A stretch of 64,000 nucleotides of DNA from an uncultured Candidatus Saccharibacteria bacterium (GCA_964507625.1 CAZDPR010000003.1:15101-79100), one strand, 5' to 3'; positions 2,374 through 10,123 are shown, counted from the first letter of the stretch. Notes: generated by a model not told the origin, from the letters alone. Made by a program: numbers and translations.

Positions 2374-2532
2374 CTCCTAAGGGTGTTTTATTTAACTTAT
2401 CAATATAATCACTAACGCCAGTGCCAACATCCCCATCGCTGGTAATGCTTTTATGATATTATCGCGGACCTTGACATGCATCGCAATTGCCCCTTTATTG
2501 AAATTCTTTTAAATATGTGCTATACTATACAC

Positions 2533-2700
2533 ATGAAGATTAATGCAAAATCAATTAATAAACCACTTTCAGCATCTCAAAAAAAGGTGCTTAAATCTCG
2601 TGGGTTTGATTCTGCAATTGCATCATTTAAAATTGAAGGTGTGTCTTTTTCAAAAGACAAAATCTCCTCACTCCGTTCACGACTCCATTCTGTTAAATAA
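2533..2700 (+). CDS. VbhA/YhfG-like small antitoxin candidate (Fic-inhibitory S-x-x-x-E-G motif)
   Basis: 55 aa. AIASFKIEGVSF resembles the VbhA ALASQRLEGLEP inhibitory motif. Its own promoter is TTGAAA(2498-2503)-17-tgcTATACT(2521-2526), 7 nt before the ATG. A terminator hairpin lies at 2725-2752. Confidence 0.4.
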   Translation: MKINAKSINKPLSASQKKVLKSRGFDSAIASFKIEGVSFSKDKISSLRSRLHSVK

Positions 2701-2724
2701 TTCAATCATTGGATTAACATTTGC

Positions 2725-2752
2725 AACTGCTGCCTGCTGGACAGCAGTTTTA
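2725..2752 (+). terminator. Rho-independent terminator (AACTGCTG-loop-CAGCAGTT + T run)
   Basis: Perfect 8-bp stem followed by TTTT. Confidence 0.6.
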
Positions 2753-2817
2753 TTATAGTAATAGTATACCAAAAATAACCCGAGATGGTTTATTTTTATA
2801 CATTGCATTGATATCTT

Positions 2818-3033
2818 CTAGAAAAAAGTCTTTACATACAGTTGTTCTACTTTGGCGCGTGCCCATGGGGTTTTCCGTAAAAATACCAAACTGGATTTGA
2901 TACTGGGATCGATCTGGAAACAGTTAATATTCACCCGCATTCCCATTTCACCCCAACCCAAACGATCCACCAATTCCTGGAGGATCATTTCGAGTGTTTT
3001 GTTTTGGAAGGGGTTATTGTGAGATATTGACAT
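2818..3033 (-). CDS. DUF2132 (VF530-like) domain protein
   Basis: [25 protein letters not shown]...[16 protein letters not shown] matches the DUF2132 signature. Confidence 0.6.
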
Positions 3034-3078
3034 ATATATTTATTTATATTATATTAATACAAACAAAAAATCAAGAAA

Positions 3079-3498
3079 ATGACTCGAGAACAAAAACTAG
3101 CTCTTATTTCAATCGGTGCAACCTGGTGGGCAAATTACCTGGAAAAACCAGCCCGAGGAGATTCTGCAAACGGCGGAATCGGAGGATTCGGTTCTGTACT
3201 TGCCACCTTCGCAAAAATAACTGTCCAAAAACCTGTTACCAAAGATCAAATTGAACTTTTCAAAAAATCATTGACGGAACAAGTTGGACGAAACATTTAT
3301 GACACTCATCCAGATCAAACACTCACTATCGGGACTGACTGGGCCCCAGAAATGGAACTCGCAAACGCGTGCCATGAATCTGGAGTCAGTGGTACAGAAT
3401 TTCCTAGTAAAACCACTATGTGGATTAATTTTGGAAAAGGTACCATTTCGGTTGCTGTTGGTATTACAGACTCAAAGGTTATCTATACTGCAAAATAG
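3079..3498 (+). CDS. Hypothetical protein (139 aa)
   Basis: Own consensus promoter TTGACA(3027-3032)-17-TATATT(3050-3055) and terminator 3519-3545. Confidence 0.5.
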   Translation: MTREQKLALISIGATWWANYLEKPARGDSANGGIGGFGSVLATFAKITVQKPVTKDQIELFKKSLTEQVGRNIYDTHPDQTLTIGTDWAPEMELANACHESGVSGTEFPSKTTMWINFGKGTISVAVGITDSKVIYTAK

Positions 3499-3518
3499 AT
3501 TAGATACACAATGTACAA

Positions 3519-3545
3519 GGACGAACTTCGGTTCGTCTTTTTTGT
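3519..3545 (+). terminator. Rho-independent terminator (GACGAAC-ttcg-GTTCGTC + T7)
   Basis: Perfect 7-bp GC-rich stem with a TTCG loop, followed by tttttttg. Confidence 0.8.
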
Positions 3546-3609
3546 TAAGTAATAAGGAAAATAAAATAACCTGAAGTGGGTTATTTTATTTTAAGCCAAT
3601 TTTTATAAA

Positions 3610-3876
3610 TTATAATATCATTATCTCAATGAAACCTTTTGCAAGTAACTCTGTAGTTCCCTCGCGCAAATCATGCAGGTTTTCCCATAATTGAAAGGTT
3701 TGATAACTATCGTCTTCTGATATCATTTCCCATTCATCAGGTTCGACTTCTACATAATCATCATCTTCGGGCGTATATTCCTGACACATTACCAAGAATG
3801 GAAAATAAAAATCTGGGTGTTCGTGGCAGTATTTTAATAATTGAATAGCAAGGTCTCGGGTTATGTTCATAGTCAA
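3610..3876 (-). CDS. Highly acidic small protein (88 aa, about 21 D/E vs 4 K/R)
   Basis: Acidic run PEDDDYVEVEPDEWEMISEDDS, located directly downstream of the DpnI-like gene. Confidence 0.45.
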   Translation of the reverse strand: MTMNITRDLAIQLLKYCHEHPDFYFPFLVMCQEYTPEDDDYVEVEPDEWEMISEDDSYQTFQLWENLHDLREGTTELLAKGFIEIMIL

Positions 3877-3941
3877 AAATAGATCATTAGATTAATAATG
3901 ATCTGATCATTGATCAAAATAAAAATAAGATCAAGTCTTTT

Positions 3942-4706
3942 TTATGTAACTGTGTATAATCCTTTTCCTATAAATTCAAGGTACCCTTTATCTCGTAAGA
4001 ATTGTAATTGTTGGCGAATTTTTGCTTGAATATTATTGTTTTCTGGATGAATCTTTTTAAGTTCAGGTTCAAATGCATACATGTCAGTTAGGGTAAATTC
4101 TTTTTTATTTAAAGCATCAATACAATTCATAATATCAAGAATCCAACCTTTCGCTTCTACTTTTTTAATTTTTTTCAAAAAAACTGTCTTTTGCCATTTT
4201 TCTAAAACGTCTTTTTTAGAAATTTCTTTTCCATTTTCAATATAAAAAATTTGTCCCGCTTTTGGAATTTTAGAAAATAGAATATTTGAACCGACCCAGC
4301 CAGCCCGGCGAGCAGTTGGAGACAAAGGCTTCCTTTTTTCAATAATTTCAGATACGAAAAAATGCTTTGGTACCACAAAGAAATCATTCACCAATAATGT
4401 TTCTAAATATTCCATGAAAAAGAAATTTGGTTTTTCTGGAGAGTTAATTCTTTTAATCATTTCTGAATATGCTCCCGCAGCAACAGTTTTTCCAATCTTA
4501 CCTTTTTTAGATTTTAACTCAAAATCCTCGGTACATTTTTTGCAGTAAAAATCAGCTACGGGTTTATTATTTTCATATTCATTTATTAAATTTCCACAAC
4601 TGGGACAATAAATTTCACGTAAAACCCATCTCTCTGTAAGGATACGAGCTTTTTGACTTGCACTTGTGTAGTTCTCAGCTTCTTTAAGGTTGAATAATAA
4701 GTTCAT
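3942..4706 (-). CDS. dpnI-like: DpnI-family methyl-directed (G-m6A-TC) Type IIM restriction endonuclease
   Basis: N-terminus LFNLKEAENYTSASQKARILTERWVLREIYCPSCGN...ADFYCKKCTEDFELKSKKG matches the DpnI catalytic PD-(D/E)xK/E-x-K region. The C-terminal winged-helix part ends IRQQLQFLRDKGYLEFIGKGLY. Full length is 254 aa, as in DpnI. Confidence 0.7.
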   Translation of the reverse strand: MNLLFNLKEAENYTSASQKARILTERWVLREIYCPSCGNLINEYENNKPVADFYCKKCTEDFELKSKKGKIGKTVAAGAYSEMIKRINSPEKPNFFFMEYLETLLVNDFFVVPKHFFVSEIIEKRKPLSPTARRAGWVGSNILFSKIPKAGQIFYIENGKEISKKDVLEKWQKTVFLKKIKKVEAKGWILDIMNCIDALNKKEFTLTDMYAFEPELKKIHPENNNIQAKIRQQLQFLRDKGYLEFIGKGLYTVT

Positions 4707-4872
4707 ATGATTTAATTAATTATTGAAAATTTTCTGTTTAAATAAAATAGTTTAATATATCTAATACTATATATTTTCGCATAATTACAAACAATATTCA
4801 ACCCACCATTTTAAAACCAAAAAACCGCCTTTTCAGCAGTTCCTGTTATCTCCTCCTATTCCCACATTAAGC

Positions 4873-5163
4873 CTACGCCCTTTTATGAATCTCCACCTGT
4901 ACCATAACCATATCCCCTTCCCAGATATCCTGTGCCGTACGCACTGACTTTTTAATCGCAATCAAAAATGCTTGATCGCGCAAATGAGGCAACAATGACG
5001 TCTGCCAAGAGGTAGATCCAATGGTAATGGTCGCACGCAGTAATCCCTTGCCATACTGATCACGAATTGGACCAAATAATTCCCGCGGGACATAGACGAA
5101 ATACCACGGCGTATTCCCTGGCCATTTCCATACCTTTGCAGAAAAAGAAAATTCAGGTGACAT
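4873..5163 (-). CDS. DUF1905 domain protein
   Basis: VWKWPGNTPWYFVYVP...ATITIGSTSWQTSLLP...GDMVMVQV fits the DUF1905 pattern. Confidence 0.55.
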   Translation of the reverse strand: MSPEFSFSAKVWKWPGNTPWYFVYVPRELFGPIRDQYGKGLLRATITIGSTSWQTSLLPHLRDQAFLIAIKKSVRTAQDIWEGDMVMVQVEIHKRA

Positions 5164-5169
5164 AATGGG

Positions 5170-6144
5170 TTATTTTTTCTTCACTACCAATAATTGTGTC
5201 ACCAATGCCGTCATTTGATCTTTTTTCTCGGGCTTACTTTCTGCAATTAATAACGTCAGCGCGGTGAGCGTGCTCGGATTAATATTTCTATACCCCTTTA
5301 CCTGATATTTACGCAAAAACCAAATAAACGCCCATGCACCACTGCGTTTATTCCCATCAACGAACGGGTGGTTTTTCACCATAAAATATAACAAGTGTGC
5401 TGCTTTTTCTTCGGTAGTTGCATAAATTGGTTTTCCGTCGAATGACTGCATCACGTTTCCGATGATCCCCTCTACTGATCCCATTGATCGTTCTTGAGCA
5501 AAAATGTCAGTTGCTTCACCTTTTTTGATCAAGTCATTACGGAGCGTCGCAATCGAATCACGTAATTCATCTGCAGATACGGTGATTGATTTTTTGGCGG
5601 TTCCTACTGGGGTGAGTAATTCTTTGTCATATGCATCGAGTGATGCCCATGTGGTAGAAAATTCTTTTACTAATTCTAAAATACTTTTTGGATCTAATGT
5701 GGCATGTTCAGGGAGGAGGTTTTGGATTGCGGTAACGGTTTTGAGGAATTCCTGATGATTCTTTTGAATTTGCTTACGATTTATCACATAACCTTTGATA
5801 AAGTAATCTTTTAAGATCTTACTTACCCATTTACGAAATTCAATTGCTCGACCTGAATTCGTCCGATATCCAACTGCTAAAATAATATCCAAGGAGTAGA
5901 AATTAACGGGTTTATCAGAATTTGCAATGTGCATTTTTTGCACATTGCTTTTTTCACCAACTTCTTTTGATTTTAAAATATTATTAATGTGTTTAGTAAC
6001 TACTGATCGTTCTACTCCAAACACCTCGGCAATTTGTGCCTGAGTCGCCCAAATCGTTTCATGCGAAAAATCCCCACGGAACTGAATTTCTCCGGAAGAT
6101 GCTTGATATAACACTACAGAATTTTTAACGATTGGTTTTTTCAT
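5170..6144 (-). CDS. RhuM-family N-terminal domain fused to a Fic/Doc-fold domain (noncanonical motif HPFVDGNKRSG, Doc-like)
   Basis: The N-terminus is the COG3943/RhuM signature (FYSLDIILAVGYRTNSGRAIEFRKW). The C-terminal motif HPFVDGNKR is closer to the Doc kinase motif HxFxD(A/G)NKR than to the Fic motif GNGR. No in-cis S/TxxxE(G/N) inhibitory motif is present. Confidence 0.7.
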   Translation of the reverse strand: MKKPIVKNSVVLYQASSGEIQFRGDFSHETIWATQAQIAEVFGVERSVVTKHINNILKSKEVGEKSNVQKMHIANSDKPVNFYSLDIILAVGYRTNSGRAIEFRKWVSKILKDYFIKGYVINRKQIQKNHQEFLKTVTAIQNLLPEHATLDPKSILELVKEFSTTWASLDAYDKELLTPVGTAKKSITVSADELRDSIATLRNDLIKKGEATDIFAQERSMGSVEGIIGNVMQSFDGKPIYATTEEKAAHLLYFMVKNHPFVDGNKRSGAWAFIWFLRKYQVKGYRNINPSTLTALTLLIAESKPEKKDQMTALVTQLLVVKKK

Positions 6145-9751: not shown

Positions 9752-10123
9752 ATGAAAATTCATATGAACAGGATTTGGCTAAAAATTAACATTACCAACT
9801 CTTCATTCATTACTGTTCATATATGGGATAGTGAGAATGAACAACAGTTGTGTAGAAGTTTTTCAGACAAACTGGAGGGATTGAAAGCAAGTTTTCAATT
9901 ATTCTTTTTTGCAGAAACAATTTCCGCAGAAGAATTTTCTTTTCTGATTGAAAAAATACTCTTCCACGCAGAAATTCCTGAAACAACAGCAGGACAACAA
10001 GACTTACAAGATTATTTACTAGTTATTAATTGTCTTGCAGAAGGAAAAATAATAAATGCAACACAGAGGGTGAGATTTCGAAATAAAATACGAAATATTC
10101 AATTCCAAAATAAAACGCCGTGA
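9752..10123 (+). CDS. Hypothetical protein (123 aa)
   Basis: Consensus promoter TTGACA(9706-9711)-17-TATATT(9729-9734); terminator 10115-10138. Confidence 0.45.
   Translation: MKIHMNRIWLKINITNSSFITVHIWDSENEQQLCRSFSDKLEGLKASFQLFFFAETISAEEFSFLIEKILFHAEIPETTAGQQDLQDYLLVINCLAEGKIINATQRVRFRNKIRNIQFQNKTP

Follow-up and report, generated by a model that had tools for sequence, protein, structure and literature searches.

A probable remnant of a FicY/AntY-type Fic toxin-antitoxin cassette beside an unrelated RhuM/Fic/DOC gene in an uncultured Candidatus Saccharibacteria bacterium

The peptide gene and the toxin remnant

A DNA stretch of 64,000 nucleotides (nt) from an uncultured Candidatus Saccharibacteria bacterium (GCA_964507625.1 CAZDPR010000003.1:15101-79100), called the window here, was analysed for a small gene with the features of a Fic inhibitor and for a RhuM/Fic/DOC family gene lying 2.5 kb away from it. 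The window has a G+C content of 36%, and the closest relatives of its proteins were found in Patescibacteria (Paceibacteria and Nomurabacteria metagenome-assembled genomes). The small gene, an antY-like gene for a FicA-type antitoxin, is an open reading frame (ORF) at 2533-2700 on the plus strand, and its full translation is MKINAKSINKPLSASQKKVLKSRGFDSAIASFKIEGVSFSKDKISSLRSRLHSVK (55 aa). The gene was recognised from its inhibitory-helix (alpha-inh) motif S31-F-K-I-E35-G36, from a family hidden Markov model (HMM) and from its orthologues. The motif lies in the segment AIASFKIEGVSF, and SFKIEG (residues 31-36) is unchanged in every orthologue. On the minus strand, at 2677-2754, the antitoxin ORF is overlapped by 24 nt by the 3' stub of a deleted ficY-like toxin gene, consisting of the stop codon and the last 25 codons, NKTAVQQAAVANVNPMIELFNRMES. 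A relic of the upstream region of the Fic gene follows at 2763-2797, also on the minus strand, with an extended -10 element TGgTATACT (reverse complement of 2763-2771) and the hairpin AAAAATAACCCGAGATGGTTTATTTTT at 2771-2797.

The promoter of the peptide gene (2498-2526, plus strand) was identified by a consensus scan with a score of 10/12 and a TG extension. It comprises the -35 element TTGAAA (2498-2503), a spacer of 17 nt, TG at 2518-2519 and the -10 element TATACT (2521-2526). The gap between the end of the -10 element and the ATG of the peptide is 6 nt, and the mRNA is probably leaderless. The distance from the -10 hexamer to the peptide ATG was found to be 6-7 nt in the window (2521-2535) and in the related loci L001 (~9990-10003), L002 (~9990-10003) and L003 (~140-153), and a Shine-Dalgarno sequence is absent before the ATG in all four lineages, which suggests that leaderless expression of the peptide is conserved across them. 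The promoter of L002 differs in sequence (TTGACA...TGaTATAAT), its spacing to the ATG being still kept. The promoter of the Fic gene is likewise placed against its own start codon. The initial annotation had given the small gene a promoter and a terminator of its own, of which the former was confirmed. The supposed terminator, a hairpin CTGCTGGACAGCAG followed by TTTT at 2734-2747 and located 3' of the peptide ORF, lies however inside the remnant of the deleted Fic gene, where it covers the codons for the conserved TAVQQAA, and is not simply a dedicated terminator of the peptide gene.

The bare [ST]xxxE[GN]-type motif occurred in 2.9% of the small stop-to-stop ORFs of the window, and since it is so frequent the motif alone is weak evidence. 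An HMM made from the convergent Fic-associated peptides of other phyla, with the subgroup of the window excluded, was searched against the 1061 stop-to-stop ORFs of the window. The ORF at 2533-2700 was the sole significant match (E 6.3e-6), the runner-up having an E value of 0.16. A search of 5.8 billion proteins revealed three peptide clusters only, each of 55 aa and with 80-91% identity, and an additional copy in L095 was 91% identical. An exact-sequence look-up gave no match to the window peptide itself. The ratio of nonsynonymous to synonymous substitution rates (dN/dS) of the peptide was 0.14-0.57, the length of 55 aa being conserved and the changes mostly synonymous, while between the peptide of the window and that of L001, both orphaned of their toxin, it was 0.14 with a dS of 0.45. 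The ORF is a real, conserved gene, and its earlier description as a small protein of the Fic-inhibitor type (alpha-inh, SxxxEG) is in accordance with these results. AlphaFold2 modelled the peptide alone as three short helices with a mean predicted local distance difference test (pLDDT) score of 68, the motif having no confident placement.

Intact cassettes in relatives and deletion of the toxin

The question whether other genomes place the peptide beside a Fic gene, raised in the initial annotation, was answered in the affirmative. In L002 and L003-L006 the peptide ORF lies tail-to-tail with a gene for a 197-aa Fic protein, overlapping its 3' end by 24 nt, and the convergent peptide also accompanies the close Fic homologues of L095 and L096/L097, where gene callers had missed it. 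A peptide gene convergent with the Fic gene and abutting or overlapping its 3' end was thereby documented in L002, L004, L095 and L096. The same position and the same overlap are seen in the window, but only the last 25 codons of Fic are left there. Two metagenome scans, one based on the peptide alignment and the other on a conserved DNA pattern, yielded no confirmed further cassette loci.

The intact Fic orthologues (P0124-P0130) carry the canonical HPFREGNGRIIR and are devoid of [ST]xxxE[GN]. The partner Fic is of class I: its HPFREGNGR agrees with HPFx[D/E]GNGRxxR, and no cis alpha-inh motif is present. The best solved relatives of the 197-aa protein are EfFic, VbhT and NmFic, and its chain stops short of the position which the C-terminal inhibitory helix takes in class III proteins.

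The stub in the window is the conserved C-terminus of this Fic family. It matches the C-termini of P0124-P0131 and differs from that of P0127 in 2 of 24 residues. The window at 2546-2753 showed 92% identity with L002 in blastn, and a four-way alignment with the intact L095 and L002 revealed a clean gap of 516 nt in the window, which begins at the Fic start codon and reaches about codon 171. Past the gap the homology resumes with the upstream region of the Fic gene, 2763-2797 being homologous to the DNA just 5' of the Fic start codon in L095, L001 and L002. The -10 element of this relic (2763-2771, minus strand) faces the antitoxin ORF at its 3' end, from a distance of about 60 nt; if active, as its sequence would allow, it could yield antisense RNA.

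L001 is the same locus as the intact L095, with GmrSD, an EcoRI-type methylase, a major facilitator superfamily (MFS) gene and an ATP-binding cassette (ABC) transporter in the flanks. Comparison of L001 10185-10275 with L095 5920-6600 revealed a different, in-frame-like deletion of 505 nt in the Fic gene, which keeps the Fic start codon and the first ~15 codons. As the deletions in the window and in L001 are different, the toxin was lost independently in two lineages, the peptide gene being kept in both. The cassette of ~300 bp is the only segment common to the window and L001/L002 (87-92% identity), the flanks being unrelated, and the flanking housekeeping genes of L001 and L002 are 68-73% identical to each other, which is below the identity of the cassette. 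The pattern would fit a mobile module in a variable defence neighbourhood. Defence genes found around the cassette in relatives are GmrSD, Mrr and a type I restriction-modification system.

Two further features of the intact loci were considered as sources of inhibition. A Cys-rich ORF of ~100 aa, probably a zinc ribbon, lies upstream of Fic in some relatives (L002 10778-11074, minus strand; L096 698-1021) and is not present in L095; no family match was obtained for it. As an alternative antitoxin the 98-aa Cys-rich ORF of L002 was rejected, having no motif and no conserved position (L095 has GmrSD there). The alignment of Fic homologues also displayed a conserved N-terminal element, (K/R)Y..xxxEG(E)..LPNKLG, at residues ~4-20, which is shared by the loci L043, L045 and L058. 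It fits the pattern [ST]xxxEG in about one quarter of the members and lies ~120 residues before the catalytic His, a spacing like that of class II. A role of this "KY..xxEG" element as a cis inhibitor was discarded, as FicY-like proteins carry the same element and FicY is active and toxic alone.

The convergent peptide across phyla

The distribution of the peptide was analysed in 80 Fic loci from species-representative genomes, chosen via an alignment of Fic homologues. A convergent ORF of 50-80 aa with [ST]xxxE[GN] was present in 27 of them, the 3' overlap being usually 4-67 nt and the typical motifs ASFRIEGI, TSFAIEGIKF and SSAVEGI. These loci include Paceibacteria, Balneolaceae, Bacteroides, Flavobacterium and Chitinophagaceae, and further Bradymonadales, Gallionellaceae, Nitrospira, Omnitrophica, Roizmanbacteria and others. 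About ten additional loci (Serratia, Yersinia, Pantoea, Shewanella and others) had the same ORF with STA[IV]ET or SSA[IV]ES. By a stricter count the convergent motif ORF was found at 24 of 74 Fic genes as against 9 of 388 control ORFs, which were other ORFs from the same loci (Fisher p = 3e-14). The class III relatives in the set had a cis C-terminal SYYYEG ~75 residues after the His and no convergent ORF. In an alignment of 37 peptide sequences all members share the Glu and nearly all the Ser. Judged from sequence, the peptides are a widespread family of small [ST]xxxE[GN] proteins convergent to genes of ~200-aa class I Fic AMPylases. The convergent layout thereby extends to many phyla, bacteria of the candidate phyla radiation included; to our knowledge it had been known from one Yersinia pair.

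The FicY-like Fic of L002 (10145-10735) matched the PADLOC candidate PDC-S04 with an E value of 1.5e-56, the S prefix denoting a single-gene system. The conserved convergent peptide suggests that PDC-S04 is really a two-gene module, and the PDC-S04 Fic genes listed as single genes probably need their hidden partner for study or safe cloning. The peptide and its orthologues gave no match in Pfam, NCBIfam, PADLOC or the PDB sequences, and AntY-type peptides have no model in Pfam, NCBIfam and PADLOC. In RefSeq the convergent AntY-type ORFs are labelled "hypothetical protein", as in the Citrobacter freundii plasmid p6_A (L098 2112-2270, SSTAIETG) and in a Marinomonas plasmid (L099 2124-2282, SSSAIETG). 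On the Citrobacter plasmid the Fic gene comes directly after a site-specific integrase gene.

Comparison with known Fic modules

The FicY protein of Y. pseudotuberculosis YPIII (catalytic His141) AMPylates Tyr106 of ParE and blocks topoisomerase IV, the consequence being filamentous cells and an SOS response (Lu et al. 2020, PMC7479194). Its AMPylation activity is inhibited in a dose-dependent manner by AntY, a small protein with the motif S22TAIET27, whose ORF is located downstream of and convergent to ficY and has a separate promoter (PMC7479194). The cassette under study resembles this pair in several respects. FicY is a class I Fic of ~205 aa with HPFREGNGR and is homologous to the toxin of the cassette (tblastn E 4e-27). 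The inhibitor is in both cases a peptide of ~55 aa with S-x-x-x-E, whose ORF lies downstream, runs convergent to the Fic gene and has a promoter of its own, and the two peptides can be aligned in register. This layout recurs in the Yersinia, Serratia and Pantoea loci L043, L045 and L058, and in the Yersinia locus L045 the Fic His is at 141, as in FicY, with the same peptide type. The window differs in having no toxin, and its host is of low GC and probably belongs to the Patescibacteria. By its sequence the window peptide is a distant member of the AntY kind, and an inhibition of Fic by it would follow from likeness to AntY/FicY (PMC7479194).

The pairs VbhA/VbhT, YhfG (EcFicA)/EcFicT and AntF/Fic-1 work on a related principle, a small protein lending an [ST]xxxE[GN] alpha-inh helix to a Fic AMPylase that has none. 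The genes of VbhA, YhfG and AntF lie upstream of the toxin gene and are co-transcribed with it (PMC13327609; PMC3667792), whereas the orthologous loci of the window peptide are all convergent. The likeness to VbhA noted in the initial annotation was retained at the level of the motif, which aligns in register (ALASQRLEG in VbhA, AIASFKIEG in the window), and not as membership of the family. The VbhA and YhfG models gave no match at E values up to 5 with the peptide or its orthologues, VbhA itself scoring 2e-12 as a control; the initial annotation had named such a failure as grounds for giving up its proposal. When the 37-sequence alignment was compared with the Pfam VbhA and YhfG models, only one other member reached E <=0.1. 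By analogy of action, the window peptide is to be seen as a functional analogue of VbhA and YhfG, not as a member of their families.

The RhuM/Fic/DOC protein

The second gene (5170-6144, minus strand) encodes a RhuM/Fic/DOC family protein of 324 aa, with an N-terminal RhuM region resembling a winged helix-turn-helix and a C-terminal Doc-type Fic domain carrying HPFVDGNKRSGA. Pfam matched residues 69-130 to Virulence_RhuM (E 7e-18) and residues 232-277 to Fic (E 7e-11), and HPFVDGNKRSGA is the sole Fic-type motif in the six frames of the window. The active-site motif HPFVDGNKR is of the Doc type, HxFx(D/N)(A/G)NKR, without the second arginine. Neither [ST]xxxE[GN] nor even [ST]xxxE was detected anywhere in the protein. 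The earlier account of a Doc-like protein without an in-cis inhibitory motif was thus correct, and with no cis helix motif the protein did not turn out to be an autoinhibited class II or class III Fic, which that account had held to be the other way in which it could fail.

Homologues form more than 7,900 clusters, bear the NCBI name "virulence protein RhuM/Fic/DOC family protein" and, for the best 120, are 66-77% identical to the window protein, HPFxDGNKRSGA being present in 115 of these 120. The PADLOC candidate PDC-S23 matched over the full length (residues 3-320, E 1.7e-104); it is an untested candidate defence system derived from guilt-by-embedding. TIGR01550 DOC_P1 gave an E value of 1.3e-7 with 31.8 bits, below its cutoff of 38.65, and the sole PDB match, also with the family profile, was a Doc-family protein. 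In four other genomes the RhuM/Fic/DOC gene is solitary and surrounded by purine-synthesis, MreB/HolB or DoxX genes, the next gene being 7-8 nt away, and neither a Phd-like antitoxin nor an adjacent small gene was found beside it in the window or in these four genomes. A [ST]xxxE[GN]-type pattern occurs ~30 residues before the His in 26 of the 120 homologues; it is presumably part of the Doc core, and its position is neither that of the class II nor that of the class III alpha-inh. In class II Fic proteins the alpha-inh motif precedes helix alpha-1 (PMC3667792). A structure model of the protein from a shallow alignment of 36 close homologues had a mean pLDDT of 58 and a poor Fic domain.

The one RhuM-Fic protein studied to date is BifA of Streptococcus equi subsp. 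zooepidemicus, which has the same two-domain layout of RhuM and Fic/Doc with a catalytic His. BifA needs His247 of its Fic domain for activity and promotes phosphorylation of a host protein (PMC6529018). BifA was investigated for its role as a host-cell effector in a pathogen, whereas the Patescibacteria proteins are known from sequence. Doc of the phage P1 Phd/Doc pair shares the Doc-type active site without the second arginine, and the weak profile and PDB matches are to Doc-family members only; unlike Phd/Doc, the window gene has no adjacent Phd-like antitoxin and encodes an extra 200-aa RhuM N-terminal region. The RhuM/Fic/DOC gene is a common, stand-alone gene, separate from the Fic toxin-antitoxin relic, and would qualify as an independent single-gene defence-island candidate with putative Doc-type chemistry.

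Interpretation of the locus

In all likelihood the segment 2498-2797 is left over from a class I Fic toxin-antitoxin cassette of the FicY/AntY type, with the RhuM/Fic/DOC gene being independent of the peptide. The intact cassette would consist of two convergent genes, each with its promoter set directly against the start codon. The toxin would be a Fic AMPylase of ~197 aa with HPFREGNGRxxR, whose probable target, by homology with FicY, is the ATPase subunit of topoisomerase IV or gyrase, so that DNA replication and segregation would be blocked. The antitoxin, a predicted 55-aa product of the gene overlapping the toxin 3' end by 24 nt, should put Glu35 of its SxxxEG helix into the ATP site of Fic. 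The 516-bp deletion took out the toxin codons from the start to about 171 and left the antitoxin gene and its promoter intact. Loss of the toxin first is the usual order of decay of toxin-antitoxin modules, because loss of the antitoxin first would be lethal.

Several points weigh against this interpretation. The identity of the toxins with FicY is only ~31%, and AntY has T after the Glu (STAIET) where the window peptide has G (SFKIEG). The Pfam profiles of VbhA (PF18495) and YhfG (PF10832) and the NCBIfam profiles gave no match to the peptide, and the likeness to VbhA does not go beyond the motif (hhalign probability of 0.75% and 8 bits against the family HMM). The expression and the usefulness of the orphan peptide are inferred, and the relic Fic promoter may cause antisense transcription through the peptide gene. 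The analysis covered 64 kb of the genome, and another Fic partner may lie outside.

The main reading of the initial annotation was that the peptide is a trans inhibitor of the RhuM-Fic protein, the two being a split pair across the island. The genes do lie within 3.6 kb, and the RhuM-Fic protein has neither a cis inhibitory motif nor an adjacent antitoxin. Such a pairing is nevertheless highly improbable and was abandoned, as the partner of the peptide in relatives is the adjacent canonical class I Fic, which is deleted here and whose stub remains in the window. L001, L002 and L095 have the peptide and no RhuM-Fic gene within 6-10 kb, and conversely the RhuM/Fic/DOC homologues of four genomes lie amid housekeeping genes, where the peptide is missing and no space is left for it. 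The only solved relative of the RhuM-Fic protein is a Doc-family protein, and HPFVDGNKRSGA is without the second arginine, the target of the alpha-inh glutamate mechanism, so that inhibition by an SxxxEG peptide would have no obvious mechanistic basis. A chance ORF with a coincidental SxxxEG is a practically negligible explanation. The bare motif in ~3% of small ORFs and the missing Pfam and NCBIfam matches would be in line with it, but the conserved 55-aa length, the mostly synonymous substitutions, the family HMM match (E 6.3e-6) and the association with Fic across phyla (p = 3e-14) effectively refute it. A continuing role of the peptide as antitoxin to an intact FicY-like toxin, encoded in this genome but beyond the 64-kb window, is very unlikely. 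Several Fic toxin-antitoxin copies per genome are common, and an intact related Fic is present on a contig (L097) of the run SRR13355621, which neighbours SRR13355620 in accession number; the window, however, has no second Fic motif, and the Fic of L096/L097 has its own adjacent peptide, only 66% identical to that of the window.

The orphan antitoxin might also be under selection as a stand-alone immunity (anti-addiction) factor against FicY-type toxins of mobile elements or phages, in line with the alternative given in the initial annotation. Two independent toxin deletions, in the window and in L001, spare the peptide ORF and its promoter, the dN/dS between the two orphans is 0.14, and a cassette identity of 87-92%, above the 68-73% of the L001-L002 flanks, suggests that the module moves between genomes. 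Such a role is still considered unlikely. The stub is nearly unchanged (2/24 against P0127), which leaves room for a recent deletion and for a low dN/dS that dates from the time before it; the orphan copies found are two only, decay with the antitoxin as the last part is expected without selection, and the relic Fic promoter faces the peptide ORF. A broader version, which we hold to be rather doubtful, would see a recurrent and selected loss of the toxin with retention of the antitoxin in small-genome bacteria, the peptide being an immunity gene with a strong leaderless promoter and PDC-S04 a convergent two-gene module whose second gene is unannotated in many phyla.

With the locus taken as a decayed FicY/AntY-type cassette, the small gene can be named as an AntY-type Fic antitoxin beside a toxin pseudogene stub. 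The architecture, which had been described as non-standard, is that of a decayed copy of the known FicY/AntY module (PMC7479194). The case is one of ordinary toxin-antitoxin decay in a variable defence neighbourhood, and the suggestion of a new long-range regulatory arrangement is thereby removed. The cassette belongs to a module type already known and has decayed, the gene beside it is unrelated and common, and the value of the result is mainly in annotation.

Neighbouring genes

A gene for a DpnI-like methyl-directed type II restriction endonuclease lies at 3942-4706 on the minus strand (Pfam DpnI E 1e-74 and DpnI_C E 1e-33; PADLOC mREase_II E 5.5e-103), and no methylase gene is adjacent to it. 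Together the DpnI-like gene, the RhuM/Fic/DOC gene and the Fic relic mark the region of 2.5-6.1 kb as a small defence island. A DUF1905 protein of 96 aa (4873-5163, minus strand; Pfam E 9e-20) is encoded 7 nt downstream of the RhuM/Fic/DOC gene. Its gene was not beside the RhuM/Fic/DOC homologues in the other genomes examined, and it is therefore a neighbour only. The Logan contig L007, from the same strain, ends 9 nt past the RhuM/Fic/DOC gene, which may reflect strain variation.

Between a VF530-like gene and the DpnI-like gene there are two ORFs, of 139 aa (3079-3498, plus strand) and 88 aa (3610-3876, minus strand), and searches of Pfam, NCBIfam and PADLOC assigned neither of them to a family. 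Of the promoters in the region, that of the 139-aa ORF is closest to the consensus (TTGACA-17-TATATT at 3027-3055, 11/12), and the ORF also has a clean terminator at 3517-3540.

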